DNA from: Escherichia phage Cyrano
DNA: 64,000 nucleotides
Sequence record: OV696614
Reading direction: 5' to 3' (one strand)
Shown one piece after another: positions 867 to 64,000 of the stretch. Numbering within the stretch: position 1 is the stretch's first letter; each line of letters begins with the position of its first letter. The position numbers and the translations under genes are program-made. Under the pieces are notes generated by a model. The model was not told the DNA's origin and ran no database searches. It was given only the letters and a program-made list of their open reading frames with translations.

Positions 867-961
867 ACAAAACAGCCTTAACGATAAGTAACCACTTACG
901 ATAGATAATGATATATTTATATAAGAAGTTGAACGCTCATTAGAAAACAAAGGAAAAACGC

Positions 962-2197
962 ATGACTACTACTGCACTGCAAAATGAAAAAAATCCTTCT
1001 GATTACCTTGTTTGCAAGTGGTGCGGAAAATCATTTCACTATTTTAAGTCCCATGTAGCCAATGGTAATTGCGAGGGCATTCCTGAGTCAGTAAAAGATG
1101 CCGATCCTGACACCGTACTGAAAATGTACACAACACAGTTTCCAGATGAGCCAACGCTATCGAAAAAGGCACTTGATGCAATTCAAGCTAAACGTGCCGA
1201 GCAAAAAAGCGAAATGGCCAAATCATCTGGCGTGACCAGTAGCCCAGGCTACACAGGCACAGTTGAGTACAAGACAGATCTGGTCGCAGCTCACGAACTG
1301 CTAAATGTAACGGTGAAAGAACTCGGAACAAAACGTGGGACGCCGCTCATGGTTAGCGTCAACGTCAATACGCCGTTTCCAGAGTTCGTTCCAGAAGTGA
1401 AGAAGGGCTACGTATATGGCGACTTCGAACTGATCAAAGACATTTTCATGATGCTTGAACTTGGCATACCTGGCTATTTGTGGGGTCATGCAGGAACAGG
1501 CAAATCGTCATTGCCTACACAACTATGTGCTTTGCTCAATCGTCCGTTGATCCGTGCCCAACATACAGCATCAATGGAAGAGGCACATGTTACGGGGCAA
1601 ATTCTGGCGCGTGATGGCTCTACGTATTTCGAGCCTGGCTTGCTTGCGCTCGCAATGAAGCATGGCTGGGTTTACCTCGCGGATGAATACGACTTTGCGT
1701 TTCCACAGATTCTTGGCGTGTATCAGCCAGTGCTGGAAGGTGAAGCGTTGGTCATCAAAGAGGCGACTCCAGAATGGCGTCGCATTACTCCGCATGAACG
1801 GTTTGCTTTCATTGGCACTGGCAACACGAACGGATCTGGTGATGAAACCGGCTTGTACCAGGGTACAAACATCCAGAACGCCGCGAACTTTTCGCGTTTT
1901 GGCATCGTTTCGAATGTGAAATACATGAGCAAAGAGGCAGAGATCAACATGTTGATAAATGCCGGTATCGTGGATGAATACGCAGAAAAGATGGTTAAGT
2001 TTGCCGGTATCGTTCGCGATGGATACGAAGAACACCTTATCAGTCAGCCAATTGGCCCTCGTGAACTTTTGTTGTCGGCCAAGATTGGAATGATGCGAGG
2101 CGACTTTGTGACAGGTATTGAGCGTTCTTTCATTAACAAACTCCCTTCAGCTTCTGCACAAGCGGCTCGTGAAGTTGTTCAAAAAATATTTGGTTGA
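962..2197 (+). CDS. AAA+ ATPase, CobS/MoxR-like
   Basis: Walker A GHAGTGKSS and Walker B VYLADEYD; N-terminal Cys/His cluster (CKWCGKSFHYFKSH); paired with upstream vWA protein. Confidence 0.65.
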   Translation: MTTTALQNEKNPSDYLVCKWCGKSFHYFKSHVANGNCEGIPESVKDADPDTVLKMYTTQFPDEPTLSKKALDAIQAKRAEQKSEMAKSSGVTSSPGYTGTVEYKTDLVAAHELLNVTVKELGTKRGTPLMVSVNVNTPFPEFVPEVKKGYVYGDFELIKDIFMMLELGIPGYLWGHAGTGKSSLPTQLCALLNRPLIRAQHTASMEEAHVTGQILARDGSTYFEPGLLALAMKHGWVYLADEYDFAFPQILGVYQPVLEGEALVIKEATPEWRRITPHERFAFIGTGNTNGSGDETGLYQGTNIQNAANFSRFGIVSNVKYMSKEAEINMLINAGIVDEYAEKMVKFAGIVRDGYEEHLISQPIGPRELLLSAKIGMMRGDFVTGIERSFINKLPSASAQAAREVVQKIFG

Positions 2198-2403
2198 TCG
2201 TGCGTAAAGGATGTTTCGGCTCTCTTATCGCTGCTTCTGAAACTGGTAAGGCTTGTCTGGTATGTCCAGACAAGCCCGATTGTCACCAATCAGCAAAAGA
2301 AGTTGCGATTTCGATGTATGGGAAGTTCGTAGGCTTCCCCAATGACAAAATCAAAAAAACCATAAAGGTAAAAACACATGAAAGCACTGATGGTTCGAAC
2401 TGA
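2194..2403 (+). CDS. small Cys-rich ORF (hypothetical)
   Basis: 69-codon ORF with TTG/GTG start overlapping the upstream stop; four Cys in a C-x13-CxxC-x5-C pattern; overlaps start of the polymerase gene. Weak support. Confidence 0.2.
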   Translation: MIVRKGCFGSLIAASETGKACLVCPDKPDCHQSAKEVAISMYGKFVGFPNDKIKKTIKVKTHESTDGSN

Positions 2404-5400
2404 CTTCTCACTTGGGGAGTCGGCTCTAAAAGCAGAAAACGCGGTGAAGATTGCCAGAGAAGCTGGCTACACCGCTGTAATTTCAGCAGATAGCATGAAT
2501 ATTGCGAGTGTTATTCCACTACAACGTGCCGCTGGTGACGACATGGCGGTTATTTGTGGTGTGAAACTAAATATCGTTGATGATCCCACATACGAGCACC
2601 GGGCTAAACTTGCTAAAGAATCTATGAGATGTATGGAATCATTAGAGCGGGGACGTAACTACTCGTTTACCGCTCTAATTAAAAATGAGCAAGGATATCG
2701 CGACATCTGCGAACTAATGACGGCGGCCAACACACGAGAACAGTTCTACTTTGTACCGCGTCTCTCGCTCGAACAGTTGGTTTCTACATATGCCAAAGGC
2801 AACATCATCCTGCTTACTTCCGACATCGGTAGCGTGTTCCAACGCAACGATTTTGCAAAAATCATAAGCACACTGATTACAGCGGGTGGAAAAGACAACT
2901 TCTATAGTGTGGTTTATCCGCACCCTACCCCATTCTACGACCAGATTAACGTCCGGGCGATGAAAGTCGCCAGCGCATTGAAAATAGAGCCAGTGGCGTT
3001 CTATCCCGCTTATTACGAATCGATCGACGATGCAGACATTAAAGACATTGCGCACATGGTTACGAACAACATCAAAATCGACCAGCCGCATCGTCTGCGT
3101 ATCCCCCACCAGCGAGATAACGCCATCAATGGTCGTCGCCATCTCCTTGAGGCGCTTAAAGCCTTCTCCGTTCGCATGGATGTGCCGGTAACAGCTGCAA
3201 TGGCCTCAACAACGCAGGACTCCATTATCGATGCCTGCACATGGCGCTGGCATGAATTGCCACCAGCACTGCCCAAGATGGCAGACGACGAACCTGCAAC
3301 GCTGATGAAACTGGCTGTTGCAGGGCTGCGTAAACGTCTTACCACAAAAGAGTTTGGATACACACCACCTGCTTCTGAGAACAGGGTTTATGTTGAGCGG
3401 CTAAAGTACGAAATGGACACGCTGACTCGCCTGGGATTCTGTGGTTACTTCCTGATGGTACGCGATCTGATGAATCACAGCCGTGAAACTGGCATTCCTG
3501 TCGGGCCTGGTCGTGGTTCCTCTGCCGGTTCTCTGGTGGCGTGGTGCATAGGCATAACCAACGTCGACCCAATCCGTCACGGTCTTCTGTTTGAGCGTTT
3601 CATCAACCCTGAGCGTCTCGACTTGCCGGATGCGGACTTGGACTTCAGCCAGGCACGTCGCCATGAGGTGATCGAGTATCTGAATGAACGCTACGGCGAA
3701 GATTACGTTGCAGGCATTCCGAACTTCACCTATCTGGGCGCGGCATCTGCACTACGTGACACCGCTCGTATTTATGGTGTGGAGTCCGCAGATATGGCGG
3801 TATCAAAAGAACTGAAGAACGTCGAGGATGATAGCCTTCCATTGGAAGAGCTGCGCGAACAACTGGCAAGTCTCGACAAATACGCAACAAAATATCCTGA
3901 TGCATTCAATGCAGCCTGCAAGTTACAAAGCCTTATGCGTGGCTTTGGTAGACATGCGGCAGGGATGATCGTAGCAGGTGTTCCTCTGACAGAACGTACA
4001 CCGGTTGAGCGCCGTGGTGACGCGCGTTGTATCGCATTTGACAAGCGTTACTGCGAGGCTATGGGCCTAATTAAGCTGGACGTGCTTGGCCTGGCAACTC
4101 TCGATTTGCTCGATAGTGCAAAACGCTACATCAAAGAGAGTACCGGGGAAGACATCAATCTCGACGCTATCCCACTGGACGATCGCAAGGTTCTGGATGG
4201 GTTCGCTGCAGGGTACACGCAGGGCGTATTCCAGCTGGAGTCCGGCCCCATGCGTAAGTTGCTTAAAGATCTGGGCGGTGGCATCGAGCCAATGAGCTTC
4301 AAGACCGTTGTCGCCACGACCGCACTCTTCCGACCAGGCCCGATCCAATCCGGCATGTTGGACGACTATGTCTCCGTGGCCAAAGGCTTCATGGCTCCAC
4401 ATTCAATTCATCCGCGTCTTGAGGAAGTCACCCGGGAGACTAATGGTGTTTTGCTCTATCAGGAACAAATCATGCAAAGTTCCCGAGTACTTGCCGGGTT
4501 CTCTATGGCCGAAGCAGACGCTCTGCGTTCCGCTATCGGTAAAAAGAACATGGATAAGATGAAAGCGATCGGCAGCGATTTTGTAGAACGAGCACAAGCA
4601 GGCTGGGTGACACTGTCACTCAAAAATGGAGGTACTGTAGAGGTTCACAAACACGCAAAACTGGATTGCTCAGACGGTAAGCGTAGAAGCTACAGCGAGG
4701 CTATTAGTGACGGCATAGACTACGTGGAGATCGTCTCTGAACAAGAAGGTCTCAGTAAGGAAAAAGCCCAAGAAATATGGGACGCCTTTGAGAAGTTCGG
4801 TGGATATGCCTTCAACAAATCACACAGTGTTGCTTATTCTTTAATCAGTTATCAGTCTATGTGGCTAAAGACGCACTACCCTGCTGAGTTCTTCGCAGCT
4901 GCGCTCACCATTCTGGGCGAGGATAAGCATCAGGGGCTGGTGAAGGATGCGCTGACCTATGGCATTCGCGTATTGCCACCAGACGTTAATGTGTCATCTA
5001 ACCGAATTGAGATCCGCACACTCGAAGACGGCAGTCAGGCACTGTATGCGCCATTCTCTGCTGTGAAAGGCTGTTCTGAAAATGGTTGTCAGGCAATTAT
5101 GCGTGCGCGTGAGAAAGTTGGTGGCAAATTCGAGTCAGTGGCACAATTCGATGAAGCGGTCGAGAAGCGTGCATGTAACAGTCGTGTACGCGAGTCGCTT
5201 CATAAAGTAGGGGCTTTTGCGTCAATTGAGCCAGGCAGTCTGCCAGCAACTGATCCTGAACGACTGCGCGACCAGGCTGAGCTGATGGGCAATCTCATCA
5301 TTGACGCTGTTAAAGCATCACGTCCGTTCGAAATGAATCCTAAGCGTTCTGCCGAAATCAACGTACTCATGACACGTATGGCGGCTGAAATGGGCTTGGG

Positions 5401-5884: not shown

Positions 5885-5890
5885 TAAAGA

Positions 5891-5913
5891 AAACCCGCCT
5901 GTTGGCGGGTTTA
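5891..5913 (+). terminator. rho-independent terminator after polymerase gene
   Basis: Hairpin AAACCCGCC-TGTT-GGCGGGTTT followed by T/A-rich tract. Confidence 0.6.
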
Positions 5914-6187
5914 TAAAGAATTATGGCGCTTGTTGAGGAAGTCACTCCTCTTACGCACTTTGTTTTGCCATGCCGGCAGTTAGCTTCTGCCTTTGACTAT
6001 TCATGCGGCAACCCCGCATTTCGCCACAATGGGCAATTCACTTTTATGGAATAAACTGGCCGTTGTGTCGATTTAATTAGCATGGCCTTACCATGCTAAT
6101 TTATTCAACTTGTACAATCCTACAAATCTATCCACTCAGGCTTACACCGTCTTCGTTATTGTAGAAATGAGGATCATCAGCGTTGAA

Positions 6188-6403
6188 TCAGCTTAGAGCA
6201 ACGACATTTGCTGCTGCTGGGCCTTTAGCACCATTCTCGATAGAGAATTCGACCTGCTGGCCTTCTTCCAAAGTGCGGAAATTATTACTCTGAATTGCCG
6301 AAAAATGTACAAAAACATCTTTACTGCCATCAGCAGGAGAAATAAAGCCAAAGCCTTTATCAGAGTTAAACCATTTTACTAAACCAGTCATTTTATTAGA
6401 CAT
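6188..6403 (-). CDS. cold-shock protein, CspA family
   Basis: 71 aa starting [21 protein letters not shown]...; RNP1/RNP2 motifs (KGFGFI, VFVHF); very similar to enterobacterial CspA-family proteins by recall. Long 5' leader typical of csp genes. Confidence 0.85.
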
Positions 6404-6732
6404 AGATATTACCTTCTTAATTTTGTGAGCCACATAGTGCGGCGAGAATTTGATCTGTATAGATTGGGACTTACTTAGGCACTTAAGGAGGAGACTCACG
6501 AAGAAGGGAAATCAGAAGATAACACTGAACTGAGACTGCTTTACTAAAACTGCTTACATAAGGTCTGTCTTGCAAACCAACGATGCTATTAACGCATACC
6601 CCTTCTTTTCATGCAACCTTTATTTTTCAAAGATAACTAATTTTTGTCACCATTGGTTTAGTAAACGTTAACGAACCAGACGATGCCAGACACCTTTACA
6701 GAGAACAGATGCCCGCCAATTGGCGGGCATCA

Positions 6733-7332
6733 TTATGCGCATTTCGCAATATCTTTGCGGCGTTTAATCAGTTTCTCCGCAATTTGCTCTATTTCGTTGA
6801 AATCTTTCGAGACGCTGTTTCGAAGCGCCAGATTCCATTTACTCAAAGTTCGGGCATTTTGGACAATTTGATCGCCCTCTTTAAGTCGTCCGTTATTCAT
6901 GAGCCATTCAGCCACATCAGCCCAATCCCAGAGAGGAGACTGGCCTTTTATGCGTTGTACAGGGCAAGGGAAGTCGCCGCTTCCGCGCTTACCGTCTTTG
7001 AGCAACGCCACTGCCTGGCGAGACAGGTCTGTCAGTTCCGCGATATCGCTTAAGCCCACAAGAGCCGAGTCGACGGATTCAACAATTGCACCGATACCGG
7101 CTGATTCAATATTGTCGACCGCAGATGCGATAGCTGCATCAAGTGATTGTGCTTCGCGGTCAAATTCTACATAGACGGAGTTTCCATATGCGCAAATTAG
7201 CGCATCGTCACAGCCGTTTTGGTACAGCGCGTCTTCCAGTCCTTCCGTCTCATACGATACGCCTGAGAGCGTCAGAGTGAAGTTATAAAGCGCCATAGTT
7301 TTCCTTTGAAGATAGTTGGACAGTTTCTGCAA
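6733..7332 (-). CDS. putative HicB-like antitoxin / DNA-binding protein
   Basis: Immediately downstream (same strand) of the HicA-like ORF; N-terminal region resembles the HicB fold and is followed by an HTH-like segment (DLSRQAVALLKDGKR). Assignment from motif resemblance only. Confidence 0.35.
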   Translation of the reverse strand: MQKLSNYLQRKTMALYNFTLTLSGVSYETEGLEDALYQNGCDDALICAYGNSVYVEFDREAQSLDAAIASAVDNIESAGIGAIVESVDSALVGLSDIAELTDLSRQAVALLKDGKRGSGDFPCPVQRIKGQSPLWDWADVAEWLMNNGRLKEGDQIVQNARTLSKWNLALRNSVSKDFNEIEQIAEKLIKRRKDIAKCA

Positions 7333-7356
7333 AAGGCGGCTAATGCCGCCTTGAAA

Positions 7357-8266: not shown

Positions 8267-8383
8267 TTTTTGATAGATAATAAGTAAGTACTGATCTATC
8301 ATTTAACAGCTCGAAAGAGCCACGAATGAACGAAAGCCCAACGCGCATAGCGCCATCGGCCAAATCACAACAAGGAGAAACAC

Positions 8384-13055: not shown

Positions 13056-13118
13056 GTATGTTGAAAATGTATAAGCACTTACTTATCATTAGCACACAAT
13101 AACCACATAGGAAAACAC

Positions 13119-13319
13119 ATGTTCAAACTCTATCTTATGGCAGTAGTTACAGGTCTATCTGTAGTTTTCATCTACTGTTTGCTGGTTCCGTCGCTGATCT
13201 CTGCTAAAAGCGACATTGCCGTAATGCTTGGAATCATCGTTGCTTTTGGTGCTCCTGTGATCGGGTTTATTGCAGGTCGTAAGTTTCTAAAGTCACTCAT
13301 CAATTCGAAGGAGAAGTAA
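13119..13319 (+). CDS. small membrane protein (possible NfeD-like partner of the SPFH protein)
   Basis: 66 aa with two hydrophobic segments; stop lies 4 nt before the SPFH gene start. Confidence 0.45.
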   Translation: MFKLYLMAVVTGLSVVFIYCLLVPSLISAKSDIAVMLGIIVAFGAPVIGFIAGRKFLKSLINSKEK

Positions 13320-14670: not shown

Positions 14671-14725
14671 TCGCCTATTCATAACTAACAAAATAAGTAA
14701 ACACTAACCACAAAAGGAAAAACAC

Positions 14726-15001
14726 ATGAGAGTTTTAGTTCGAATCGTTACCAGCACTGTCTATGACGTGTTTCCGGTTTTTATGGTCAAAGCCGATGGC
14801 CTTAACGACGAAGAAACTGACGCGCTGATCCAGCGTATTCTCGTTGAATATACAGGTCATGACGCTGATTCAGTGATGGTTGATGATGATGGTGTTTGTT
14901 GGCATAACGGCAACTGTTGGTACGTAGAAGAGACTCAACAAATCAGTGATGAAGATGCCGAACATCTTGAGCGTATTTTAAGCATCAGCACTTTTGAGTG
15001 A
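14726..15001 (+). CDS. hypothetical acidic protein
   Basis: 91-codon ORF preceded by the AGGAAAAACACATG start context seen at many genes in this window. Confidence 0.45.
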   Translation: MRVLVRIVTSTVYDVFPVFMVKADGLNDEETDALIQRILVEYTGHDADSVMVDDDGVCWHNGNCWYVEETQQISDEDAEHLERILSISTFE

Positions 15002-15039
15002 GTTTACAGTAAAATTTATATAAGTTAGTATCTACCTAT

Positions 15040-15219
15040 CATGAAGATTTTTATTGAATACTTGTTACTCATCGTTTCAATAGCTTTTGTCATCGACTGC
15101 ATTTTCACTGGTGTCATTCGTAAAGTCTTTTCCCCGGTGCACGACGTAGTCATAAACGCTTTGGCTATCGTGCTCGTATTTAATTCAGCATTTGATGTAA
15201 TCAAAGAGGTGGCAGCATG
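15040..15219 (+). CDS. small hydrophobic protein (not in supplied ORF track)
   Basis: 59-codon ORF read from the sequence (MKIFIEYLLLIVSIAFVIDCIFTGV...); stop overlaps the ATG of the next gene (ATGA). Confidence 0.3.
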
Positions 15220-17474: not shown

Positions 17475-17966
17475 GATCATGTCTGAAGGCAGATGGCACA
17501 ACGGTTTGAGGTGGGCGGGGATCTTATTGGGTCTTTATGGGTCTCTTTGGTTCTCTTTGTGATCTGAATTACTGGATCGGGCCTGTGGATAAAAATCAGA
17601 GGATTTCAAGAACAGGTAACTCTACTCTTCTGTGGATATTTAAGGACATAAGAATCATGACTAAGAGTAGAGTTTAAAATATATCTATGTATATCAGTAT
17701 GTTAATGAAGAATTAAGTCATTAAGTTATCCATAAAAGACAATGTGCTCTACTCTCTACAGTGGATATATACAGCTCTCCAGAGTGGTTGTTTTACTCTT
17801 CATAGCGGTTATTCAGCTCTCTACAGAGGTTTCTTTGCTCTCCATAGTGGATGGCAACACCCTTTCAGACCAGTAACCGCAACGGCTAGAGGCGATCGGG
17901 GATCTCTTTGGATCTTCTATTTGATCTTACTTGGGATCTCTTATTTGGATCTATCCAGTGGATAAC
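17475..17966. promoter_or_regulatory. origin-like region: DnaA boxes, AT-rich segment, second degenerate iteron set and GATC clusters
   Basis: Perfect DnaA box TGTGGATAA at 17585-17593 and near-matches at 17631, 17726 and 17958; degenerate 21-22 bp iterons at 17744-17870; six GATC sites within 17894-17951; a related degenerate block at 17510-17578. Confidence 0.55.
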
Positions 17967-18052
17967 TGGGATAAGTAAAACAGGCAAATGCAGATTAAGG
18001 TATGCCTAATGAGTTATCGTAGCATCGGCCAATAACTACTGAAAAAACGATT

Positions 18053-18697
18053 ATGGATCTAAAACGCACGCGCTGGGTTCGTCGTCTTGAGGACGGCTCC
18101 TACACTATCGAATCAAATTCCAACCTGAATAAGCAGAAGTTACTTTGTGATATCTGCGGTATAGCGGCGAAGTGCCCGATCTACGAAACCAGAATTAAAC
18201 TTGATAAGGCTGGTGTGAACTTTCATTTGAATAGTTGTATCAGGTACGTTCCATTGCTCGCATTTCGTAAACCGATCATCGGATTGGATGCGCCCTACTT
18301 CAACACACTCCGTTCAGGAGTAACGTGGCGAGATCGTTTAACACCAGACAAACTGATTTGCCTTGTATCCGCAGATACAGGAAAAATCATTCGTTTTGGG
18401 AAAGTAGACAAGGTTTACTCAGGCCCAGTTGACGAGATGTTGCGGAAACACAGCCGGTTTAATCACCTCTGCATGGGTGGTGAGAAAATCGAGAAGGTTG
18501 AAGAAGTGATCCGCAAATCCTACGGACACTTCCTGACCAAAGATAGCCTGCTCACTGCAATCTACATCAGACATGTAAAACGTGAGTTCGACCTTGAATA
18601 CCATAGCGAAGAAGAACTGAACCTTGTCGATCCACGTCCTAAAGCTGGCGTCATAAGCATAAATGCAGCGCGTAAAAAGCCCACTGACGCGCTGTAA
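18053..18697 (+). CDS. hypothetical protein
   Basis: 214-codon ORF next to the origin region; no recognisable motif. Confidence 0.45.
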   Translation: MDLKRTRWVRRLEDGSYTIESNSNLNKQKLLCDICGIAAKCPIYETRIKLDKAGVNFHLNSCIRYVPLLAFRKPIIGLDAPYFNTLRSGVTWRDRLTPDKLICLVSADTGKIIRFGKVDKVYSGPVDEMLRKHSRFNHLCMGGEKIEKVEEVIRKSYGHFLTKDSLLTAIYIRHVKREFDLEYHSEEELNLVDPRPKAGVISINAARKKPTDAL

Positions 18698-18951
18698 CCC
18701 TCCAGATCGTATATTGGCGTAGATAGAATCTACGCCCCCTCAAAATAGCTCTCATAGCGTTCTACAGTGATCCAGTCTTATTTTTAGTCATACAGACAAG
18801 CAAAGTTGCGCCACGATAAATAGGTATATACTTACTTATAAATTTTGTATATTAAGGCGCTCGTTTCATTCCTAACATACCGTTATGCATAGTTGTTTAC
18901 CTCCTCATTGCTCTTAGAATTTGTATCAAAATAACCACAAAGGAAAAACAC

Positions 18952-20037
18952 ATGACTTTGCCATACGGCGTCATTTCTGACTGCCACTACCACAAATGGG
19001 ATGCGTTCTCCACGACGAACGCTGAGGGGCTTAACTCCAGACTTGAAATACAGTTGGAAGCAACGAAAGAAGCAGCCATCGCCATGAAGAAGGCCGGTTG
19101 TAAGTACATGTTGGTTGCCGGTGATACATTTCACGTCCGAGGAACTGTGTCCCCTTCTGTTTTGCATTACGTAACTGAAACGTACAAGTGGATTATCAAC
19201 GAGCTTGATCTGACAGTAGTAATGCTGGCCGGTAATCACGATCTTGAAACCAACGATTCAGTATATAGCGCCAACGCAGCAGCATCGCTGAGTTCTATCG
19301 GCGTGGTAATCGTATGTGGCAAGCGCCCACACTCAATAAAAATTGGTGATGTGACTGTCCACCTGATTAGCTGGCGTAACAATCATGCGGAGCTTATCAG
19401 CGATCTGAAAGCATTACGTAAGAGCGTAGAAGGTGATAATCATGACGTTGTTATCCATACATCCATTAACAAAGCCATTCCAACAATGCCTGACGTCGGT
19501 ATCGATGCGCAGGAGTTAAAGGATATCGGCTTTCGTCTCGTGCTTAGTGGGCATTACCACAACCACAAAGAGGTCATTCCTGGAGTTATCAGTGTCGGTG
19601 CACTGACTCATCAAAATTGGGGAGATGTTGGATCTCTGGCTGGCTACATGATCGTAAACCCGGACGGCAGTTTCAGTCACTACGAAACCAGTGCGCCTAA
19701 ATTCATTAACCTGGAAGATGATGTTGCTGATGACCAAATTCGCGGCAACTACGTGCGTTTCCGCGCCGTAATTGAGAACGATGAAGAAGGCATTAAGTAC
19801 CAGAACATCCTCAAAACAATGGGTGCAAAAGGTGTCGTGTGCAACTTCATCCGTAAGTCATCAATGATGGAAGGGACAGCCAGCACAACTGAAACCAGCA
19901 AAATCGATAGCCTGGGAGAGTCGGTATCTGCTTATTGCAAGATTGTCCACGATACTGACGGCGGATTTGATCTGAGCAAATTGGATATTTTGTGTCAGGA
20001 AATCCTCACCGAAGCGGAGAGTTCGGAGGCTGTGTGA
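18952..20037 (+). CDS. sbcD: SbcD/Mre11-family nuclease (T4 gp47-like)
   Basis: Calcineurin-like phosphoesterase motifs in order: SDCHY, AGDTFH, AGNHD, SGHYH. Confidence 0.8.
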   Translation: MTLPYGVISDCHYHKWDAFSTTNAEGLNSRLEIQLEATKEAAIAMKKAGCKYMLVAGDTFHVRGTVSPSVLHYVTETYKWIINELDLTVVMLAGNHDLETNDSVYSANAAASLSSIGVVIVCGKRPHSIKIGDVTVHLISWRNNHAELISDLKALRKSVEGDNHDVVIHTSINKAIPTMPDVGIDAQELKDIGFRLVLSGHYHNHKEVIPGVISVGALTHQNWGDVGSLAGYMIVNPDGSFSHYETSAPKFINLEDDVADDQIRGNYVRFRAVIENDEEGIKYQNILKTMGAKGVVCNFIRKSSMMEGTASTTETSKIDSLGESVSAYCKIVHDTDGGFDLSKLDILCQEILTEAESSEAV

Positions 20038-23495: not shown

Positions 23496-23568
23496 TTTCA
23501 TTGATAGGTAAGTGCTTATCTATTAACATGGGCCACTATATTTAGTGGCCCTCTTTATTTGGTGATAC

Positions 23569-28177: not shown

Positions 28178-28250
28178 GTCTGGTCTTGTTCTCTCAATGA
28201 ATGTAAACTCACACGATGAATAAGTAATTACTTATCTTTGTGAGGTTTTT

Positions 28251-32904: not shown

Positions 32905-33087
32905 CGTCCCCCTACTGAAAATAAAGCCCATAGAGAGCTTTATAGTGCTGGGTAAGCCAATCACATATCCAGCACCACAAAAACGCGCCAGAGAGCTTCT
33001 CGTTTGCATTTCTGGCGCGTTTTATTTGATTGCCAGACATAAAATCAAATGCAAAAATAGGTAATCACTTACCTATCGAGAAAGAAG

Positions 33088-33681: not shown

Positions 33682-33843
33682 TTTGTTCTGGCGTCTGTAA
33701 TTAGCCTGCTTCTGTATATATAAATAACTACATATTAATTATTAATATACGGAAGCAGGCTGTTTTATATCAGAGACTCCCAGACCTGAACACCACTACA
33801 GAATCCACTAGAACCCCTTCCCAGACGCTTTAAAATCGATTTT

Positions 33844-34098
33844 ATGAACCACTTTAAGGAAACCAACATGTCATACCCGACTAATGTCGTTGCGCTCGTA
33901 GAGAGCGATTTTCTGGCCCAGGCTCGTGAAATGATGAAAGATCGTGAGCAGGCTTTCAACTTGTACGAGTGGGCAATTAAGTGCTTGCATCTTGGCGAGC
34001 ATCGCGAACTTGTTGAACAGCTTTTAGGTGAGTTGATCAATGAGGTGTTTGCCTTGAATGTTCAACTACATGGTCGAGAAAATAATCAATCACAATGA
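33844..34098 (+). CDS. hypothetical protein
   Basis: 84-codon ORF; no recognisable motif. Confidence 0.4.
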   Translation: MNHFKETNMSYPTNVVALVESDFLAQAREMMKDREQAFNLYEWAIKCLHLGEHRELVEQLLGELINEVFALNVQLHGRENNQSQ

Positions 34099-34681
34099 TA
34101 GATAAGTACAAACTATTTATAAAGTGAATTGTAAGTGCTAAGATCTGATAGTTTCCAGTCGTAGACTGGAGACTCGACCTGATGGGTGGGGGTAAGCGTC
34201 ACTGGCGTCAGGTTTAAAAAAGCTCACTACCAGCGTAGAACCGGCACCGTTTAGGGGTTGGGGAAGGGGGAACCAAAGTGGGCAGAGACAAGGGTCACTT
34301 TATGATTGTCGAGTCTGGAGTGTTTCGAGAGGTTGAATCCAGTACTCCCCTTCATAAAGTGTGGGAAGATCTCGGTTCTGGGGTGCTGTCATCCATAACT
34401 TCCCAAGCCTAAGCTGGCAGTAGACTTAGGTCATAACTTTTCAGGTTATGAAACGACCAGGTTGGTGAGGAAATTTTGTACTCACCTCCCTGGGAGAGTA
34501 TTACCTGAAAAGACAACCTCTCACTTCGTTCGAGGTGAACTTCACTCACTTCGTTCGTTCAGTTCAGGTTTATAAAAACCTGTTCTGGGAAGTAATTTGT
34601 TTATTTTAATAATTATTAACACGCACGCGTGTGCGCACGCGCGAGGAAAAAATCGGCGCGGCGCTTGATTCAGGAGTTTAT

Positions 34682-35275
34682 ATGACGACGAAGACACCAG
34701 CCCGATCGCAAGCAAAAACTCGCAAAAAAGCCAAAAACAAAAATTCTCCCCGCACCAATCCCACAACGTCTGTCGTAGAGTTCAATCCCCAGCTTAAAAC
34801 CGTGAAAATCTTCAGTGATGGCTCTTGCCTTAAAAATCCGGGTGGCCCGGGCGGTTACGGTATAGTTCTCCAGTATCGTGGTGAGGAACGCGAGTTCTCA
34901 GATGGTTTTCATAGCACCACCAATAACCGCATGGAGATGATGGGGGCACTTATCGGGCTGGAGCGTTTGAAATATCCATGCAACGTTATTTTGCACTCTG
35001 ATAGCCAGTATCTGAAAAACGGCATGACACTGTGGATGAAATGGTGGAAACGCAATGGATGGATGACTTCTGACAAAAAACCGGTAAAGAATGTTGATCT
35101 GTGGAAGCGTCTGGATGAGGCCGCAAGTCGACATAATGTTCGCTGGAAGTGGGTTAAAGGTCACGCCGGGCATCGTGAAAATGAAATATGTGATCGACTC
35201 GCGAAGATCGCAGCTTTTTCAGCAGCAGATATGCCTCACAAGAAAGATATTGGTTTTGTTTATAACAAGTGGTAA
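34682..35275 (+). CDS. rnhA: ribonuclease HI with basic N-terminal extension
   Basis: [17 protein letters not shown]...TNNRMEMMG...[41 protein letters not shown]...[20 protein letters not shown] closely tracks E. coli RNase HI. Start set at ATG 34682 (AGGAG RBS); the listed 34631 GTG lies inside a palindrome. Confidence 0.85.
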
Positions 35276-35420
35276 GTAAGTGTTTACCTATCATTTTAAA
35301 TCATGTATCTTATCAGCGTCAGGATGACAATGTGTCGGTAAGACACAGTTCCAGGATGGAACGAGAAAGGCGGCTGGCAATCGCCAGCCGCAACTCTTTC
35401 TGACACTGGATGGAGTCCAC

Positions 35421-38555: not shown

Positions 38556-40241
38556 ATGAATACAGCCCTTTCCATCATCGACGATGCCAACTCAAACACT
38601 GCTATCGACTATCGGCAGGAAATGAACGTCATCCACGAAATTGTGGCCGAGTGCGAGAAAGAGATCGCTTTCATGTACCAGGTTCACGACTTCGTTTATG
38701 GCGACGAACGCCACAACATGATTAATCGCCTGCTGCAACTGAACCACCGACCAGATGAAGAACGCTCACGTTTGAATCGAGCTTGGCTGGATAAAGTCGA
38801 TCTGGAATGGGTGAAACAGAATATTTGGGCCGAGTACTGGAGGAAGGTCACGGACATGACTAACGTTTTGCTGATCATGCCAGCTTCCCGTCGAGATGAG
38901 TGGCGCGAGCAGTTTATAGAGGGCAAACAGGAAGTCATCAAAACTGACAGAACCGGCTACCAGATGAAGGTTAAAGAGTTCGTTGGTGTACCGGAGTTCA
39001 AAGCAGAAACGGTCATACCCACGATGCTTAATTTGCTGAATGACAGGCACAAATATCTCTCTGAGCGCGTGTATGGCTTGTTTAAGGCGCTGAGTCCTGC
39101 GCACAAGACAAATAAGACAAACGGTTTCAGCGAGCGGCTGATAATCGCTGACTGCATTTCTGATTTCTGGCGGGACAGCGTTAGCGTGAACTATCGCAAA
39201 GAGGACTACATCGACGATCTGCGTGTCTTGCTTCATTTCTTCGCGCACAAAGAATTTATTACCATCAACCGCACTGCTGAGGTGCTATCAGCTGCGTATC
39301 GGGCAAACGACTGCCAGACCGGTGACTGGATGAACGTCGATGGAAATCTGATGCGCGTGAAGATGTTCAAGAACGGCAACGTTCACTTTGAAATACATCC
39401 TGACGTGGCCTGGAAGTTGAATGAGGTGCTGGCTTACAGTATGCCTGCTGCAATTCCCGCGCCATGCCGAACTGCGCCAAAAACACGGGCACCAAAGCAG
39501 TTCGGGTTAATCCAGAAGACGATCTCCGTGCCGGTTCGCACTGCGCTTCGTGACGGGCGATTGAGCAAAGACAAAGGCGTATGGTACTTCTCTGATTCAG
39601 CTCTCCAGAAGTCGCAGGTGGAAGAGCTTGAGCGCACACTGAGCTTCATTGGCGGCGTGCAGGAGAAAAAGCACTGGCAGTTCCCGTATGACATCGGCCA
39701 TACGCTAAATACGATTGTGGCTACCGGTTTAATACCGGATACAAAATCACACCAGTTCTACCCTACCCCACGCTTGATTGCTGAGTACGTTGCCAGAGCC
39801 ACTGAATTGAAGCCTGGTGAGAAGCTGCTTGAGCCTCAAGCCGGACGTGGGGATCTTCTGGCCTATATTAACGCCGATCTGGAAGATGTTACCTGCATAG
39901 AAATCGCACCTCTCTTCGCTGATATCCTGCGTGGAAAAGGGTATACGAACACGATTTGCTGCGACTTCATAAAGTGGTCTGAGGACAACGCAGGTTATCA
40001 GTTCGACAAAATCGTTATGAACCCGCCGTACTCGCTTGGTCGTCATAGAGAGCACACGCTGGCTGCGCTGGGGCATCTGAAAGTCGGCGGGCGTCTTGTA
40101 GCAGTATTGCCGGGCACTGCGCCAATCCTGAGCTGGATGACGATGGATAATTACGTTTATGCCAAAGGGAAGTCGTTTACCAACGAGTTTGAAGATACCG
40201 GGATCACAGTCAGCGTATACGTTTTCAAACGCGTTAAATGA
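38556..40241 (+). CDS. putative N6-adenine DNA methyltransferase with large N-terminal domain of unknown function
   Basis: C-terminal region has an AdoMet-binding-like LEPQAGRGDL followed by catalytic NPPYS (IVMNPPYSLGR); N-terminal ~400 aa unassigned. Confidence 0.5.
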   Translation: MNTALSIIDDANSNTAIDYRQEMNVIHEIVAECEKEIAFMYQVHDFVYGDERHNMINRLLQLNHRPDEERSRLNRAWLDKVDLEWVKQNIWAEYWRKVTDMTNVLLIMPASRRDEWREQFIEGKQEVIKTDRTGYQMKVKEFVGVPEFKAETVIPTMLNLLNDRHKYLSERVYGLFKALSPAHKTNKTNGFSERLIIADCISDFWRDSVSVNYRKEDYIDDLRVLLHFFAHKEFITINRTAEVLSAAYRANDCQTGDWMNVDGNLMRVKMFKNGNVHFEIHPDVAWKLNEVLAYSMPAAIPAPCRTAPKTRAPKQFGLIQKTISVPVRTALRDGRLSKDKGVWYFSDSALQKSQVEELERTLSFIGGVQEKKHWQFPYDIGHTLNTIVATGLIPDTKSHQFYPTPRLIAEYVARATELKPGEKLLEPQAGRGDLLAYINADLEDVTCIEIAPLFADILRGKGYTNTICCDFIKWSEDNAGYQFDKIVMNPPYSLGRHREHTLAALGHLKVGGRLVAVLPGTAPILSWMTMDNYVYAKGKSFTNEFEDTGITVSVYVFKRVK

Positions 40242-40302
40242 TAGGTAAATGCTTACTTAATTTGTGTAAGAATGTAGTAACTAAACGATAAGAGAAAAAC
40301 AC

Positions 40303-41007
40303 ATGAGCAACCTCCAGTTAGAGCATTTTAACGTCACAGGACATTCCGATTTTCCTTTCAAGTTTACATTGAAAGGTTATGCAGAGGATGCGGTAGGCCA
40401 GATCATTATTGATAAAGGCATCGTTAAGTTTGAGGGGAATTTTGATGAATCCGCGAAAACATTCATAGACTTCGTTGCCAAACGTTGGAGCGAGCAATGG
40501 AAAGACCTGGAAAAGCGCGCTAGTGAGTTTGATCGGTTCATGGATGCAATGGATACAGCAAAAGAGGCTATTGCTGCCGGGACTCCGTTAGATCTGGAGT
40601 CACTTTTCAACGGCGAAGTGGCCTCTGCGATGTTCGCTACCATGTTCGCGGGTGAGTTCGTCCGCAGCGGTGCCAAAAACTACCTTGAGCTGGATTACAA
40701 CGTCCCTGCAATTGGCGATTTCGTCGTTACCATCCAACGCAAAGAAGGTAAGACGCCAGGTGAACGCGTCGCAGAACTTGAGGCTGTTGTGGATCAGCGT
40801 AACGGAGAGTGTGACCGTTTGATCAACGAGCTTCATGCACTTCGGGAAGAAAGAATATGCGAGGGTAGTAATACACGTAATGCAGCGGATATCTACTTCC
40901 AGTTAGTTGAGGAATGCCAGATTCCACCAGGTGGCTCTCTTGTCGATTACGTCGGACATTTAATGGCGGAAGTTAACTCCAGCCATAAAGATGGTGAGGT
41001 GCGCTGA
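40303..41007 (+). CDS. hypothetical protein
   Basis: 234-codon ORF with AGAGAAAAACACATG start context. Confidence 0.45.
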   Translation: MSNLQLEHFNVTGHSDFPFKFTLKGYAEDAVGQIIIDKGIVKFEGNFDESAKTFIDFVAKRWSEQWKDLEKRASEFDRFMDAMDTAKEAIAAGTPLDLESLFNGEVASAMFATMFAGEFVRSGAKNYLELDYNVPAIGDFVVTIQRKEGKTPGERVAELEAVVDQRNGECDRLINELHALREERICEGSNTRNAADIYFQLVEECQIPPGGSLVDYVGHLMAEVNSSHKDGEVR

Positions 41008-42076: not shown

Positions 42077-42633
42077 GCAAGATTGACTATCAGGCACTGC
42101 GTGAGATAGCAGAGAAAGCAACGTGTGGTGTGTGGTCGCTCGAGTATGGAGAGGGCCGATTTGATGGTGATGATGCACTAATTCATCGCGAGGCTGCTGG
42201 ATATATTCCCATTTGCAGAATTGAAGGAGCGCATCCTGAAAGCGGTTTCGATGAAGATTTCCAAATGGAACAGCAGGCCAATGCTGAATTCATCGCCGCA
42301 GCCAATCCGGCTACTGTGCTGACGCTGCTGGATGAACGGGAAGGAAACCAGCAATACATCAAACGCCGCGACCAGGAGAACGAGGAGATTGCGTTAACGG
42401 TAGGGAAGTTGCGCGTTGAGCTTGAGGCAGAAAAACAGCGGGCAAAGGATCTGTTTATGGAAAATGCTCGGCTTAAGTCAGGCATAGCTGGTCTGATACA
42501 CCTCGGTATTCGATATGCGGATGTTGAGGTCATGAAAATTGCTGGAGATGCCCAGCTTTCTACTCCATGCACTGACAGCATCATAAACAGCATTGCAGCA
42601 GGCATTTTCACCAAAGAGGGGGCAGCACGATGA
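42073..42633 (+). CDS. ead/Ea22-like family protein (putative)
   Basis: N-terminus ...YQALREIAEKATCGVW resembles the conserved start of Ea22-like prophage proteins; central coiled-coil. Confidence 0.4.
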   Translation: MSKIDYQALREIAEKATCGVWSLEYGEGRFDGDDALIHREAAGYIPICRIEGAHPESGFDEDFQMEQQANAEFIAAANPATVLTLLDEREGNQQYIKRRDQENEEIALTVGKLRVELEAEKQRAKDLFMENARLKSGIAGLIHLGIRYADVEVMKIAGDAQLSTPCTDSIINSIAAGIFTKEGAAR

Positions 42634-44895: not shown

Positions 44896-44915
44896 TACTG
44901 TATGTGTATACAGTA
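44896..44915 (+). promoter_or_regulatory. LexA (SOS) box upstream of the UmuD'-like gene
   Basis: TACTGTATGTGTATACAGTA is a perfect CTGT-N8-ACAG palindrome, 17 nt upstream of the start codon. Confidence 0.7.
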
Positions 44916-44931: not shown

Positions 44932-45321
44932 ATGGGCTTCCCTTCTCCTGCGGCGGATTATGCTGAGAGCCGTATTTCTCTTGATCAGCAGATAATTAGA
45001 CATCCTTCAGCGACCTACTTCATGAGGGCAGCTGATAGTCATCATCGTGAGGGAATATTACAGGGTGCATTGCTGGTGGTCGATTCCTCACTTACCCCGG
45101 TTGATGGTTCTCTGCTTGTATGCGCTCTGGATGGGGAATATCGCGTAAAAAGATACCGGAAGTACCCACGTCAGCATCTGGAGGATTTAAGAACCGGTAA
45201 GAAGGAAGCATTGCCAAAGGATGACGATGGATGCACGGGCAGCAATGCCGTGTTTGGTGTGATCACTCACATTATCAACGACGCAAGAAGTGGCGAGTTT
45301 GATGATTGTCCCGTGATGTAG
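44932..45321 (+). CDS. humD: UmuD'-like protein (HumD-like, S24 LexA-type peptidase fold)
   Basis: Starts MGFPSPAADY..., i.e. at the position where UmuD is cleaved to UmuD'; HPSATYFMRA and VFGVITHII blocks match UmuD; in-frame stop 15 nt upstream; no umuC gene follows. Confidence 0.75.
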   Translation: MGFPSPAADYAESRISLDQQIIRHPSATYFMRAADSHHREGILQGALLVVDSSLTPVDGSLLVCALDGEYRVKRYRKYPRQHLEDLRTGKKEALPKDDDGCTGSNAVFGVITHIINDARSGEFDDCPVM

Positions 45322-46459: not shown

Positions 46460-46616
46460 CCCGTCTCCTTTATTTTAATTTGCGCAATTGTCGCCTTGTA
46501 GTGTACTCCAGCTACGACATTTAATCATTTATGAGAAATGCTGTTATCACATGGCAGACATAAGGCCATTTTGTTACTATCAAGCCCCTTTTCACTACAA
46601 AGAAGTAATGCCTACT

Positions 46617-48650
46617 ATGACCCAAGTCGCGAAGAAAATTCTGGTGACGTGCGCGCTGCCGTACGCTAACGGCTCAATCCACCTCGGCCATATGCTGGAG
46701 CACATCCAGGCTGATGTCTGGGTTCGTTACCAGCGAATGCGCGGCCACGAGGTTAATTTCATCTGTGCCGACGATGCCCACGGTACGCCGATCATGCTGA
46801 AAGCACAGCAGCTTGGTATCACACCGGAGCAGATGATTGGCGAAATGAGTCAGGAGCATCAGACTGATTTCGCAGGCTTTAACATCAGCTATGACAACTA
46901 TCACTCGACGCACAGCGAAGAGAACCGTCAGTTGTCTGAGCTTATCTATACTCGCCTGAAAGAGAACGGTTTTATTAAAAACCGCACTATCTCTCAGTTG
47001 TACGACCCGGAAAAAGGCATGTTCCTGCCGGATCGTTTTGTGAAAGGCACCTGCCCGAAATGTAAAGCGCCAGATCAATACGGCGATAACTGTGAAGTCT
47101 GCGGCGCAACATATAGCCCGACTGAATTGATCGAGCCGAAATCGGTGGTTTCTGGCGCTACCCCGGTAATGCGTGATTCCGAACACTTCTTCTTTGATCT
47201 GCCTTCTTTCAGCGAAATGTTGCAGGCATGGACCCGCAGCGGCGCGTTGCAGGAGCAGGTGGCAAACAAAATGCAGGAGTGGTTTGAATCTGGCCTGCAA
47301 CAGTGGGATATCTCCCGCGATGCGCCTTACTTCGGTTTTGAAATTCCGGACGCGCCGGGCAAATATTTCTACGTCTGGCTGGACGCGCCGATTGGCTACA
47401 TGGGTTCCTTCAAGAATCTGTGCGACAAGCGCGGCGATACCACCAGCTTCGATGAATACTGGAAGAAAGACTCCACCGCCGAGCTGTACCACTTCATCGG
47501 TAAAGATATTGTTTACTTCCACAGCCTGTTCTGGCCTGCCATGCTGGAAGGCAGCAACTTCCGCAAGCCGACCAACCTGTTTGTTCACGGCTATGTGACG
47601 GTGAACGGCGCGAAGATGTCCAAGTCTCGCGGCACCTTTATTAAAGCCAGCACCTGGCTGAATCATTTTGACGCTGACAGCCTGCGTTACTACTACACTG
47701 CGAAACTCTCTTCGCGCATTGATGATATCGATCTCAACCTGGAGGATTTCGTTCAGCGCGTGAATGCCGATATCGTGAACAAAGTGGTTAACCTGGCCTC
47801 CCGTAATGCAGGCTTTATCAACAAGCGTTTTGACGGCGTGCTGGCAAGCGAACTGGCTGACCCGCAACTGTACAAAACCTTTACTGATGCCGCTGAAGTG
47901 ATTGGCGAAGCATGGGAAAGCCGTGAATTTGGTAAAGCTATCCGTGAAATCATGGCATTGGCTGACCTGGCTAACCGCTATGTCGATGAACAGGCTCCGT
48001 GGGTGGTGGCGAAGCAGGAAGGACGCGATGCCGATCTGCAGGCGATTTGCTCTATGGGCATTAACCTGTTCCGCGTGCTGATGACGTACCTGAAGCCGGT
48101 ACTGCCGAAACTGACTGAACGTGCAGAAGCATTCCTGAATACAGAACTGACCTGGGATGGCATCCAGCAACCGTTGCTGGGCCATAAAGTGAATCCGTTC
48201 AAGGCACTGTATAACCGCATCGATATGAAGCAGGTTGAAGCACTGGTGGAAGCATCCAAAGAAGAAGTGAAAGCCACAGCCGCACCGGTAACTGGCCCAC
48301 TGGCTGACGACCCGATTCAGGAAACTATCACCTTTGACGACTTCGCCAAAGTTGACCTGCGCGTGGCGCTGATTGAAAACGCAGAGTTTGTAGAAGGTTC
48401 TGACAAACTGCTACGCCTGACGCTGGATCTCGGTGGTGAAAAGCGTAATGTCTTCTCAGGCATCCGTTCTGCTTATCCAGACCCACAGGCACTGATTGGT
48501 CGTCACACCATTATGGTGGCTAACCTGGCTCCGCGTAAAATGCGCTTCGGTATCTCCGAAGGCATGGTGATGGCTGCTGGCCCCGGCGGGAAAGATATCT
48601 TCCTGTTAAGCCCGGATGCTGGTGCTAAACCAGGCCACCAGGTTAAGTAA
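46617..48650 (+). CDS. metG: methionyl-tRNA synthetase
   Basis: 677 aa starting [26 protein letters not shown] (HIGH motif), KMSKS motif present, zinc knuckles CPKC...CEVC; near-identical to E. coli MetG by recall. Start set at ATG 46617, not the listed upstream 46488. Confidence 0.95.
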
Positions 48651-55172: not shown

Positions 55173-55176
55173 GATT

Positions 55177-56400: not shown

Positions 56401-56922
56401 TTAAAATGGAAGGATTCGTTCAACCCAATCGAAGAAAACAAGTATTTTTCTGCCGTCTTCTAATTTAAGAGTGACCTGGCAAGCATCAACGCCTCTTGAC
56501 ACCCCTTCTATTTCACGACCGTCTGTCATGTAGACCCTTATAGATTGGTCGTTTTGATAAGCCTTGCGACATATCGCAAAAAAGTCACGGCGTGATGGCT
56601 GATTGTCAACATAGTCTGGATGTATTGTTAGCCTACCTTTGAACTCGCGAGCAATGCCATCGATTACACCTGATTCAATTGTGCTAATGCGCTCAAGTGG
56701 GAGTCTTATACGATTTTCTTTATCATATGGAAGCGGGCATAAATCTAGCTTATTGCGGGAAGGCATTGTCCCCTGAACGTACATGCAAAACACCTGACCG
56801 TCTTCAAGCGTGACTCTTACAGGAATGTTGTTCTTCCGCCAGAACATAAGTATGTTTTCAGCATGTTCGTAGTCTCGCGGCCAGACTTCAGCCGGTATGC
56901 CGTAGGTGATGTCTTTAACCAT
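56401..56922 (-). CDS. hypothetical protein
   Basis: 173-codon ORF in an AT-rich stretch. Confidence 0.45.
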   Translation of the reverse strand: MVKDITYGIPAEVWPRDYEHAENILMFWRKNNIPVRVTLEDGQVFCMYVQGTMPSRNKLDLCPLPYDKENRIRLPLERISTIESGVIDGIAREFKGRLTIHPDYVDNQPSRRDFFAICRKAYQNDQSIRVYMTDGREIEGVSRGVDACQVTLKLEDGRKILVFFDWVERILPF

Positions 56923-58776: not shown

Positions 58777-58841
58777 GATGTGCTCCTTTCTAACAAGTGA
58801 GCACATCATAGAATTAGTAGATAGGGGGTAAATATGAAATG

Positions 58842-59120: not shown

Positions 59121-59122
59121 AA

Positions 59123-60682: not shown

Positions 60683-60764
60683 AAACCTCTTTCCTTAGTG
60701 CCTTTTGTATGTTATTTGGCTATTATAATAAGTAAGTGACTACTTAGTGGATTGTAGCAATAAA

Positions 60765-63662: not shown

Positions 63663-63671
63663 GGATTTGCC

Positions 63672-63938
63672 ATGACGTTAACCGATAAACAAAAGGACAT
63701 CATCAAAACGCTCAATCTCGGTTATGAGCGAGGTCATCTACTTGATCTGGACGAATTGCTTGAAGTTTTGCCGTACAAGACAACCAAGCAAAGTATCCAG
63801 TTCTCAATTCGCGCTCTGATAAAAAAGGGGCTGGTGGAGAAAGGGCATACGCGCCAACGCAGTGACAATCGCTATCACCGCCGAACTCTTGGGTTAACCA
63901 CTTTAGGTCGAGCCAAAGCGAAGTTACTGGTGATGTAA
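63672..63938 (+). CDS. small putative winged-helix DNA-binding protein
   Basis: 88 aa; IQFSIRALIKKGLVEKGH resembles a winged-helix recognition helix/wing; last gene of the plus-strand cluster. Confidence 0.35.
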   Translation: MTLTDKQKDIIKTLNLGYERGHLLDLDELLEVLPYKTTKQSIQFSIRALIKKGLVEKGHTRQRSDNRYHRRTLGLTTLGRAKAKLLVM

Positions 63939-64000
63939 TCGGTCTGGGAGCTTATTTAAAGACCTGCATCTGTATATATAAATAATAAGTAACTTATTAA

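Follow-up and report, generated by a model that had tools for sequence, protein, structure and literature searches.

What does a palindrome do that returns again and again between the genes of a phage-plasmid? The question is raised by a 64,000-nucleotide stretch of Escherichia phage Cyrano (sequence record OV696614), here called the window, which carries replication, recombination, nucleotide-metabolism and accessory regions and reaches as far as the terminase genes. A first-pass annotation had noticed a recurrent inverted repeat with the core TAGGTAA..TTACCTA in its intergenic regions and had suggested either an immunity-repressor operator or a class of promoters. We find that the repeat is, as judged from its sequence and placement, a genuine and deeply conserved regulatory motif of an understudied, widespread phage-plasmid family. 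With a probability of roughly 0.55, we read it as the dispersed operator of a dimeric repressor encoded by the element itself.

Cyrano is plasmid pLF82 of Escherichia coli LF82, and its published coordinates minus 44,379 give the window coordinates used here, a relation that holds for more than 70 genes. The window belongs to an SSU5-type phage-plasmid, with 96–98% identity to Escherichia phage CMS-2020a and PhiR41_1 and 77–83% identity to Salmonella phage SSU5 and Klebsiella relatives, while the best matches in the plasmid database reach 99.4%. Homologues of the SSB encoded in the window were found on 975 plasmid records, Yersinia and Acinetobacter among them, and their identity to the window protein falls to 42% in the diverged Klebsiella plasmid pC714_2 and to 25% in Acinetobacter pA52-1. 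Phage-plasmids of the SSU5/pHCM2/pMT1 type are commonly carried by clinical Enterobacteriaceae, and to our knowledge their control of lysis and lysogeny is essentially uncharacterised.

Sequence and symmetry of the motif

The palindrome has a core of 22 bp, or about 26 bp with its A/T-rich and likewise symmetric flanks, and follows the consensus (G/A)ATA(G/A)GTAAGT|ACTTAC(C/T)TAT(C/T), in which T7 and A16 are invariant. A Hamming scan with GATAGGTAAGTACTTACCTATC returned 10 window positions with six or fewer mismatches, where 0.18 were expected. The same number emerged from a scoring matrix trained on sites of SSU5, pJN2-26 and pC714_2 only, with the window kept out of the training: 10 matches scored 18 bits or more, where 100 shuffles yielded 0.0, confirming that the repeat recurs beyond chance. 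Lack of intergenic enrichment had been set beforehand as the result that would speak against the motif; all 10 of these strong copies lie in the 14.5% of the window that falls outside a greedy open reading frame (ORF) mask. The perfect form TAGGTAA..TTACCTA, which had been placed near 33053, occurs once in the window, at 33058–33075, within the copy at 33056–33077.

The left and right arms of the motif are mirror images of similar information content. Their pairing is that of two independent sequences: 75.9% of cells are paired compared with 75.7% after shuffling of the partners (238 of 500 shuffles were at least as high), the covariation score of 0.156 shows no excess over the 0.162 in shuffles, and mismatches at A5/C18 number 14 against 13.5 expected. 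Predicted RNA hairpins are weak, ranging from 0 to −7.8 kcal/mol, three of the 10 copies fold no better than shuffles, and a scan of the window with Rfam gave no family match to the motif. Because the arms vary independently, the motif is a two-fold symmetric site in double-stranded DNA, as would suit a dimeric protein, and not an RNA hairpin; protein binding itself we infer from this symmetry. The searchable literature yielded no account of this motif.

Conservation across relatives

Complete relatives carry about 24 copies per genome, distributed over the early/replication region and the virion module. Within the latter, copies lie between TerL and portal, within the 3′ part of the portal gene itself, behind the capsid gene, where tail genes adjoin, and ahead of the holin gene. 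Among orthologous copies in the E. coli, Salmonella and Klebsiella lineages, identity is 0.82 over the motif and 0.45 over 30-nt flanks, and the consensus given above holds unchanged in pC714_2. In Acinetobacter pA52-1 a related palindrome, TATTAGTAAGCGCTTACTAATA, occurs at least 27 times; it differs in its centre and outer arms and occupies equivalent junctions: TerL–portal, after the capsid gene, CobT–MoxR, and before the ParB-like operon.

When complete E. coli genomes were searched with a consensus of 32 nt, 218 of the 5,426 contained matches, 840 places in total and all of them on plasmids; on the chromosomes of these 5,426 genomes there were no near-consensus places, near-consensus copies being all that this search sees. 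Among viral contigs, 45 stretches matched the exact pattern, mostly on contigs of 37–120 kb.

Copies in the window

The first-pass annotation had listed 14 positions. Nine of them are strong copies of 18.6–29.2 bits (those given as 8277, 13062, 18825, 23506, 28224, 33053, 35276, 40243 and 60729), and a further strong copy at 15019–15040 (21.8 bits), with the same sequence in SSU5 and PhiR41_1, had been overlooked. That the copies lie upstream of many genes holds, with the qualification that several overlap the preceding stop codon and that two copies in relatives fall within coding sequence. The distance to the next start codon, put at 14 to over 100 nt, measures 10–128 nt, or 0 nt for the copy at 15019, should the 59-codon ORF annotated at 15041 be genuine.

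Four of the strong copies are embedded in predicted promoters and are described with these below. The others include one at 8279–8300 (26.5 bits), 83 nt 5′ of the gp32-like SSB gene (8384) and with orthologues in SSU5 and pC714_2, and one at 18819–18840 (27.0 bits), 111 nt 5′ of an SbcD-like gene, which is kept in SSU5 and pJN2-26 at a motif identity of 0.89 compared with 0.29–0.47 in the flanks. The copy at 28215–28236 (21.5 bits) ends 14 nt before the GTG of the thymidylate synthase gene, so close that the ribosome-binding site abuts the motif. At 35271–35292 (27.9 bits) the motif overlaps the stop codon of the RNase H gene, and at 40240–40261 (26.7 bits) that of a DUF4942 methylase gene, the next start codon following 41 nt on. 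The accessory and plasmid-maintenance region, between about 41 and 60 kb of the window, yielded no copy.

Weaker copies are nevertheless held in place. The positions given as 34097 and 885 are degenerate yet positionally conserved. The first (34097–34118, 13.2 bits) follows a small gene at 33844–34098 and has orthologues in SSU5 (18.1 bits) and pC714_2 (25.4 bits). The second, GATAAGTAACCACTTACGATAG, lies at the CobT–MoxR junction (883–904, 3.9 bits) beside a half-site-like stretch at 900–921 (13.5 bits), and this junction also bears a copy in SSU5 (45123), pC714_2 and Acinetobacter pA52-1. A similar case is AATAAGTAAACACTAACCACAA at 14692–14713, which scores 8.3 bits and is directly followed by a ribosome-binding site; its SSU5 orthologue at 57745 scores 22.1 bits. 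The remaining listed positions fared worse: 28082 is dubious (7.7 bits, no orthologue), 57958 finds no support (−8.7 bits), and 63981 (11.1 bits) marks the midpoint of another, larger palindrome.

This second palindrome, CCTGCTTCTGTATATA...TATATACAGAAGCAGG, occupies 33703–33761 and 63950–64000, where it runs past the window end, and recurs at 13447, 45594 and 75129 of PhiR41_1 and at 33472 and 78318 of SSU5. It is built of 17-nt arms, AGCCTGCTTCTGTATAT and ATATACGGAAGCAGGCT, around an A/T-rich centre of about 25 nt, AATAAGTAACTTATT, which resembles a compressed form of the motif; a matrix match at 33715 is part of it, as is the one at 63981. About three copies per genome mark module boundaries (after dam, before the terminase genes and before the replication module).

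Promoters, terminators and gene starts

Promoter registers were counted over 66 copies. The outer right arm and its flank read TATYAT, a −10-like hexamer, with the conserved arm positions 17–22 forming TATY. TAnnnT stands at position 19 in 36 of the 66 copies and its mirror stands on the other strand in 41; since the hexamer is equally frequent on both strands, it is part of the palindrome and not a directionally selected element. Full sigma-70-like promoters are predicted to overlap the motif in the direction of the gene in 28 of the 66 (about 40% of copies), compared with 11 in the opposite direction, and no −35 element is recognisable in most copies (about 60%).

Where there is a complete promoter, its −10 falls at motif position −2, 19 or 22, which gives three registers. 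In one of these the −35 lies at −4 to 1 and the −10 at 19–24. It is represented by the copy inside the portal gene and, in the window, by the motif at 13066–13087, for which matrix and promoter scans together define a plus-strand feature at 13061–13089: TTGAAA (13061–13066), a 17-nt spacer and TATCAT (13084–13089), kept in SSU5, PhiR41_1 and pC714_2. A terminator hairpin ends 15 nt before this copy. The second register, with the −35 at −1 to 4 and the −10 at 22–27, is that of the copy 5′ of nrdA (motif 23503–23524, 29.2 bits; plus-strand feature 23501–23529), whose promoter reads TTGATA-17-TAACAT; here a terminator hairpin begins 5 nt past the motif. In the third, the −10 lies at −2 to 3 and the motif extends across the start site. 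This is the arrangement of the top copy, the perfect TAGGTAA-TCAC-TTACCTA at 33056–33077 (29.1 bits; plus-strand feature 33030–33077), which straddles the start predicted for a conserved promoter, TTGCCA (33030–33035)-17-TG-n-AAAAAT (33053–33058), with the ATG of a dam-like methylase gene 10 nt past it. It is also that of the copy at 60727–60748 (19.1 bits), which lies between the helicase operon on the minus strand and the ParB-like operon on the plus strand, with a perfect TATAAT at 60724–60729; copies at this divergent junction occur in Acinetobacter and, weaker, in pC714_2.

Other copies overlap the preceding stop codon and have the ribosome-binding site at motif positions 23–31 and the start codon at 32–39, so that a transcription start site 3′ of the motif would be of no use to those genes. 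Terminator hairpins stand immediately 3′ of the motif in three orthologous groups and 5′ in two; a fixed order of motif and terminator, which might have been a clue to antitermination, was rejected on this ground. Taken together, the variable register, the occupancy of −10 or start site and the promoterless copies fit an operator better than a promoter class.

Expression in the LF82 lysogen

The published RNA-seq data for the LF82 lysogen and for the bacterium in macrophages (PMC9928086, supplementary file 2) allow the genes behind the motif to be followed in both states. The first genes after all 10 strong copies have values of 5.0–11.3 in the lysogen, where the background is 9.8. This silent set includes genes behind promoters with matches at 10 of 12 consensus positions, a point in favour of active repression.

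In macrophages, transcripts climb steeply at two of the copies. At 13066 the gene upstream changes by +0.7 log2 and CYRAN_56, which is at the floor in the lysogen, by +5.3; at 15019 the change goes from +1.8 for CYRAN_59 to +6.3 for CYRAN_60. As the steps fall exactly at the motif, at least these two copies coincide with working promoters.

Two other transcripts stand out in the lysogen. CYRAN_43 (Cyrano 40268–40822, beyond the window), a hypothetical minus-strand gene close to that of the integrase, is by far the commonest Cyrano transcript, at about 7,000 against a background of 10. CYRAN_81 (34278–34412), a 45-codon ORF or small transcript, reaches 12 times background amid silent lytic genes and has a predicted promoter, TGGGCA-16-TATGAT, at 34279–34306.

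Candidate binding proteins

A repressor gene was to be sought elsewhere in the genome according to the first-pass annotation, and the candidate that turned up lies about 1.8 kb upstream of the window, beside the integrase gene. CYRAN_45 (Cyrano 42188–42574 and PhiR41_1 87738–88124, minus strand) encodes an XRE/Cro-CI-type protein of 128 amino acids, annotated as a putative repressor in the LF82 study (PMC9928086), and its value of 96 in the lysogen stands well above the background of 9.8. The protein is present in all lineages examined, including Acinetobacter, with the lytic isolate SSU5 as the sole exception, and its recognition helix keeps the invariant pattern N-x-N-x-[LIV]-S-[LF]-I-x-x-G. 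Its gene has a predicted promoter, TTTACA-16-TAATAT, and the motif core, C(A/G)GTAAGYACTTACC, stands at the predicted start site in seven enteric lineages. On these features, CYRAN_45 would be the most likely binder.

No XRE-type match was found in 100 kb of SSU5, nor by blastn against the full SSU5 record, and compared with pJN2-26 this phage is without the region of about 7 kb that bears the XRE-type gene and the integrase gene. That SSU5 grows without it shows that lytic growth does not need the XRE-type protein, which is what one would expect if the protein is a repressor. A scan for covariation between XRE helix and motif gave five loci (four enteric, one from Acinetobacter), a number too small for the comparison.

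The FljA-like regulator CYRAN_114 (56401–56922, minus strand; PF03614, E = 1e-80; phrog_1444, "transcriptional repressor") is less favoured. Described as a "repressor of phase-1 flagellin" and with a weak Hfq-like match at its C-terminus, it is found in enteric SSU5-like elements only (36–79% identity) and not in the Acinetobacter element, its gene has no motif at its own promoter, and lysogen reads amount to 18. Two ParB_N proteins encoded in the window are kept, together with an ATPase, in all lineages, and a motif copy precedes the ParB-like operon; reads of its genes in the lysogen are 5–9.5. A Pfam search of 29 proteins, 21 of them without known function, found no further regulator, and a sequence search of the PDB with the XRE-type and FljA-like proteins gave no useful match. 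A gene at 6733–7332 described as "excisionase/transcriptional regulator" was rejected as the binder: the Cyrano annotation labels it a HicB antitoxin, and PhiR41_1 lacks it. A phage sigma factor was rejected as well, since a sigma-70-family protein occurs only in Acinetobacter pA52-1 and the enteric elements carry the motif without a homologue.

Two observations on these neighbourhoods are added here. Opposite CYRAN_45 lies a gene for 70 amino acids (phrog_2627) that goes from 4.3 to 10.8 log2 in macrophages. In pA52-1 the sigma-70-family protein is encoded together with a Cys-rich protein of 226 amino acids at 17701–19097, between the MoxR and DnaE genes, and enteric elements have only a short ORF at that place (about 2200–2380 of the window), weakly like the Cys-rich N-terminus.

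Operator, promoter or other site

If the motif is the operator of an element-encoded dimeric repressor, that protein would in the plasmid (lysogenic) state occupy about 25 copies spread over the replication, nucleotide-metabolism and virion modules. At copies over the −35/−10 or the start site of a sigma-70 promoter it would exclude RNA polymerase, copies wedged between stop codon and ribosome-binding site would serve as roadblocks or auxiliary sites, and once DNA damage had led to the loss of the repressor, the promoters would become accessible. A dimer reading both arms would cover the −10-like hexamer, as a repressor would. The operator is the best supported reading because of the duplex symmetry, the variable promoter registers, the silent downstream genes and the core at the promoter of the candidate repressor gene; binding, the identity of the binder and repression through that binding are all steps that we infer.

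Several points weigh against it. The copy at the XRE-type promoter comprises the inner 14–16 bp only, and another factor could equally control that gene. With about 60% of copies having no −35, promoter occlusion is limited to a subset, and a roadblock elsewhere is conjecture. The core AAGTACTT, followed after 3 bp by TAnnnT, is close to the P1 late promoters with AAGT(T/G)ACTT, 4 bp and TAnnnT, and the sharp transcript rise at two copies under stress fits an activator equally. SSU5 keeps perfect copies without the XRE-type gene, which is uninformative if the deletion is recent but in any case lends the repressor model no support. Finally, orthologous sites are non-independent observations.

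Some of these points lead directly to the promoter class already named by the first-pass annotation, which in its most specific form would be a set of activator-dependent lytic promoters like those of P1 Lpa: the box AAGTACTT just 5′ of a −10 (TATYAT, positions 19–24), no −35, and a phage activator that recruits host RNA polymerase after induction. The box and spacing of the motif, AAGTACTT-N3-TATYAT, do recall AAGT(T/G)ACTT-N4-TAnnnT, which is present in six of seven annotated P1 late promoters (9 bp in LPhot); most copies are without a −35, slightly over half carry TAnnnT at position 19 (the 36 counted above), only lytic genes are preceded by copies, and the steps of +4.5 log2 at 13066 and 15019 in macrophages are what such promoters would produce. 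An Lpa homologue, however, was not found by tblastn in five genomes (best E = 0.94), and none of 19 scanned element proteins matched the Lpa PHROG (phrog_1704). Nor does the architecture agree well: conservation is equal in the two arms, the non-coding strand carries the −10-like hexamer just as often, and a dimer on positions 17–22 would cover that hexamer. Several conserved groups have their ribosome-binding site or start codon at positions 23–39, upstream of every start site that a promoter of this kind would yield, whereas in P1 the −10 and the start codon are 19–86 nt apart. Where −35 elements are present they stand in three registers, copies fall on the start sites predicted for the promoters of dam and of the XRE-type gene, and DNA-metabolism genes are preceded by copies too, not virion genes alone. 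The likeness to P1 late promoters and the two transcript steps thus keep the promoter class in play, but it fits less well than an operator, and we consider the Lpa-like model rather unlikely. Still less probable is another DNA-level role for a conserved element protein, such as loading or silencing by a ParB-N (KorB-like) protein, loading of an antiterminator, or marking of recombination boundaries. Such roles would suit the ParB_N proteins and ATPase found in all lineages with a copy before their operon, the motif standing directly before a terminator hairpin in three orthologous groups, and the way copies mark gene junctions; against them, the ParB-like genes are silent in the lysogen (5–9.5), the terminator lies 5′ of the motif in two groups, and nothing in the sequence points to these functions.

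The two explanations that remain were both rejected. FljA acts on the 5′ untranslated region of fliC, and an FljA-like gene does lie in the window, many copies end 0–15 nt before a ribosome-binding site, and the best copies fold at −7 to −8 kcal/mol, so an mRNA hairpin bound by a translational repressor of this kind, or a processing site, had to be weighed. Covariation is nil, however, both arms are conserved as sequence, the folds are weak (three of 10 no better than shuffles) and there is no Rfam family; the FljA-like gene is moreover missing from the motif-bearing Acinetobacter element and hardly expressed in the lysogen. An RNA element is on this evidence very improbable. A host transcription factor whose site the plasmid exploits ranks lowest of all. 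The arms resemble NarL-type heptamers (TACYYMT), the whole site is loosely like a Fur box, and the sequence is kept across elements of several enterobacterial genera; but the 5,426 complete E. coli genomes had no near-consensus place on a chromosome, and the Acinetobacter version differs in its centre and outer arms, as expected of a co-evolving factor encoded by the element.

To return to the operator, a fuller scheme can be drawn from it, which we offer tentatively and regard as doubtful in its entirety. One XRE-type repressor would silence a 100-kb plasmid prophage through some 25–30 symmetric sites. About 40% of these would be promoter–operator modules, in which a P1-late-like box and a −10 lie within the palindrome and the same 22 bp act as promoter when free and as operator when bound, and the rest would be intra-operon roadblocks. 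The whole would form a palindromic "stoperator" system of Gram-negative phage-plasmids, extending from Enterobacteriaceae to Acinetobacter. The motif yields a map of a regulon, a candidate repressor–operator pair (CYRAN_45 and the 33056 site) and a family signature across distant members.

Other features of the window

Some features of the window concern none of the above. The only Rfam match in the window is a cspA thermoregulator on the minus strand at 6163–6581 (187.6 bits), a cold-shock-type leader carried by the element. A LexA-box-like sequence, CTGTATGTGTATACAG, lies at 44898–44913, shortly 5′ of a UmuD-like/S24 peptidase gene (44932–45321) that is well expressed in the lysogen (148). 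The phage-plasmid also bears a full-length methionyl-tRNA synthetase gene at 46488–48650, with a value near background in the lysogen (16). Among short words, AAAACACATG is one of the two commonest 10-mers of the window, with eight copies, and many window genes have the start context GGAAAACACATG in common (start regions 13107–13121 and 14714–14728, for example).

Comparison with known systems

The closest functional parallel is offered by the operators of the P1 repressor C1, of which about 17–20 control dispersed lytic operons. In each case a prophage lives as a plasmid of about 100 kb and has numerous dispersed copies of one operator, a putative one here, that overlap sigma-70 promoters of lytic genes and of the repressor gene, the overlap being a predicted one in our case. 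They differ in the site itself: C1 operators are described as asymmetric 17-mers with the consensus ATTGCTCTAATAAATTT, and those annotated in the P1 record (e.g. ATTGCTCTAATGTATTG) are without two-fold symmetry, whereas the motif here is a palindrome of 22–26 bp. A small XRE-type protein is the candidate binder here, and the virion operon contains copies as well. The consensus ATTGCTCTAATAAATTT had no match in the window with up to three mismatches, and tblastn with C1 against the window, PhiR41_1, SSU5, pJN2-26, pC714_2 and pA52-1 found no homologue (best E = 6.3). Of the P1-type immunity operator proposed at first, the operator is the part that is best supported, and the likeness to P1 is functional only.

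Two further systems share single traits with the motif. The Lpa-dependent late promoters of P1, with a box at −22 and a −10 but no −35, have a like box and −10 and are similarly dispersed before lytic operons of an enterobacterial phage-plasmid; the palindrome here covers the −10, is mirrored on the left and extends beyond late genes, and start codons often stand too close. The KorB operators (OB) of RK2, a dozen or more palindromes at variable distances from promoters, exert global repression of the plasmid backbone. Many palindromic sites and an element that encodes ParB-family proteins are common to both, in contrast to the sequence, which is another one, and to the ParB-like genes, which are unexpressed in the lysogen here.

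The copies between genes of one operon find their nearest counterpart in the stoperators of mycobacteriophages L5 and Bxb1, where work of Brown and colleagues from 1997 reportedly described about 30 sites for the repressor gp71. Stoperators are asymmetric 13-mers in one orientation, for which silencing of read-through transcription has been proposed. Both systems have about 25–30 sites per genome, placed in the narrow gaps between genes of early and late operons and often with no promoter nearby; the motif differs in being symmetric with mirrored arms, and a block of elongation is conjecture here. By analogy, the motif would thus work most like the C1 operators of P1, with its intra-operon copies acting like the stoperators of L5, and it belongs to neither class: the searches above found neither a C1 operator nor a C1 protein, and the site is symmetric. 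If the intra-operon copies do act as roadblocks, this strategy of silencing would extend past the actinobacteriophages.

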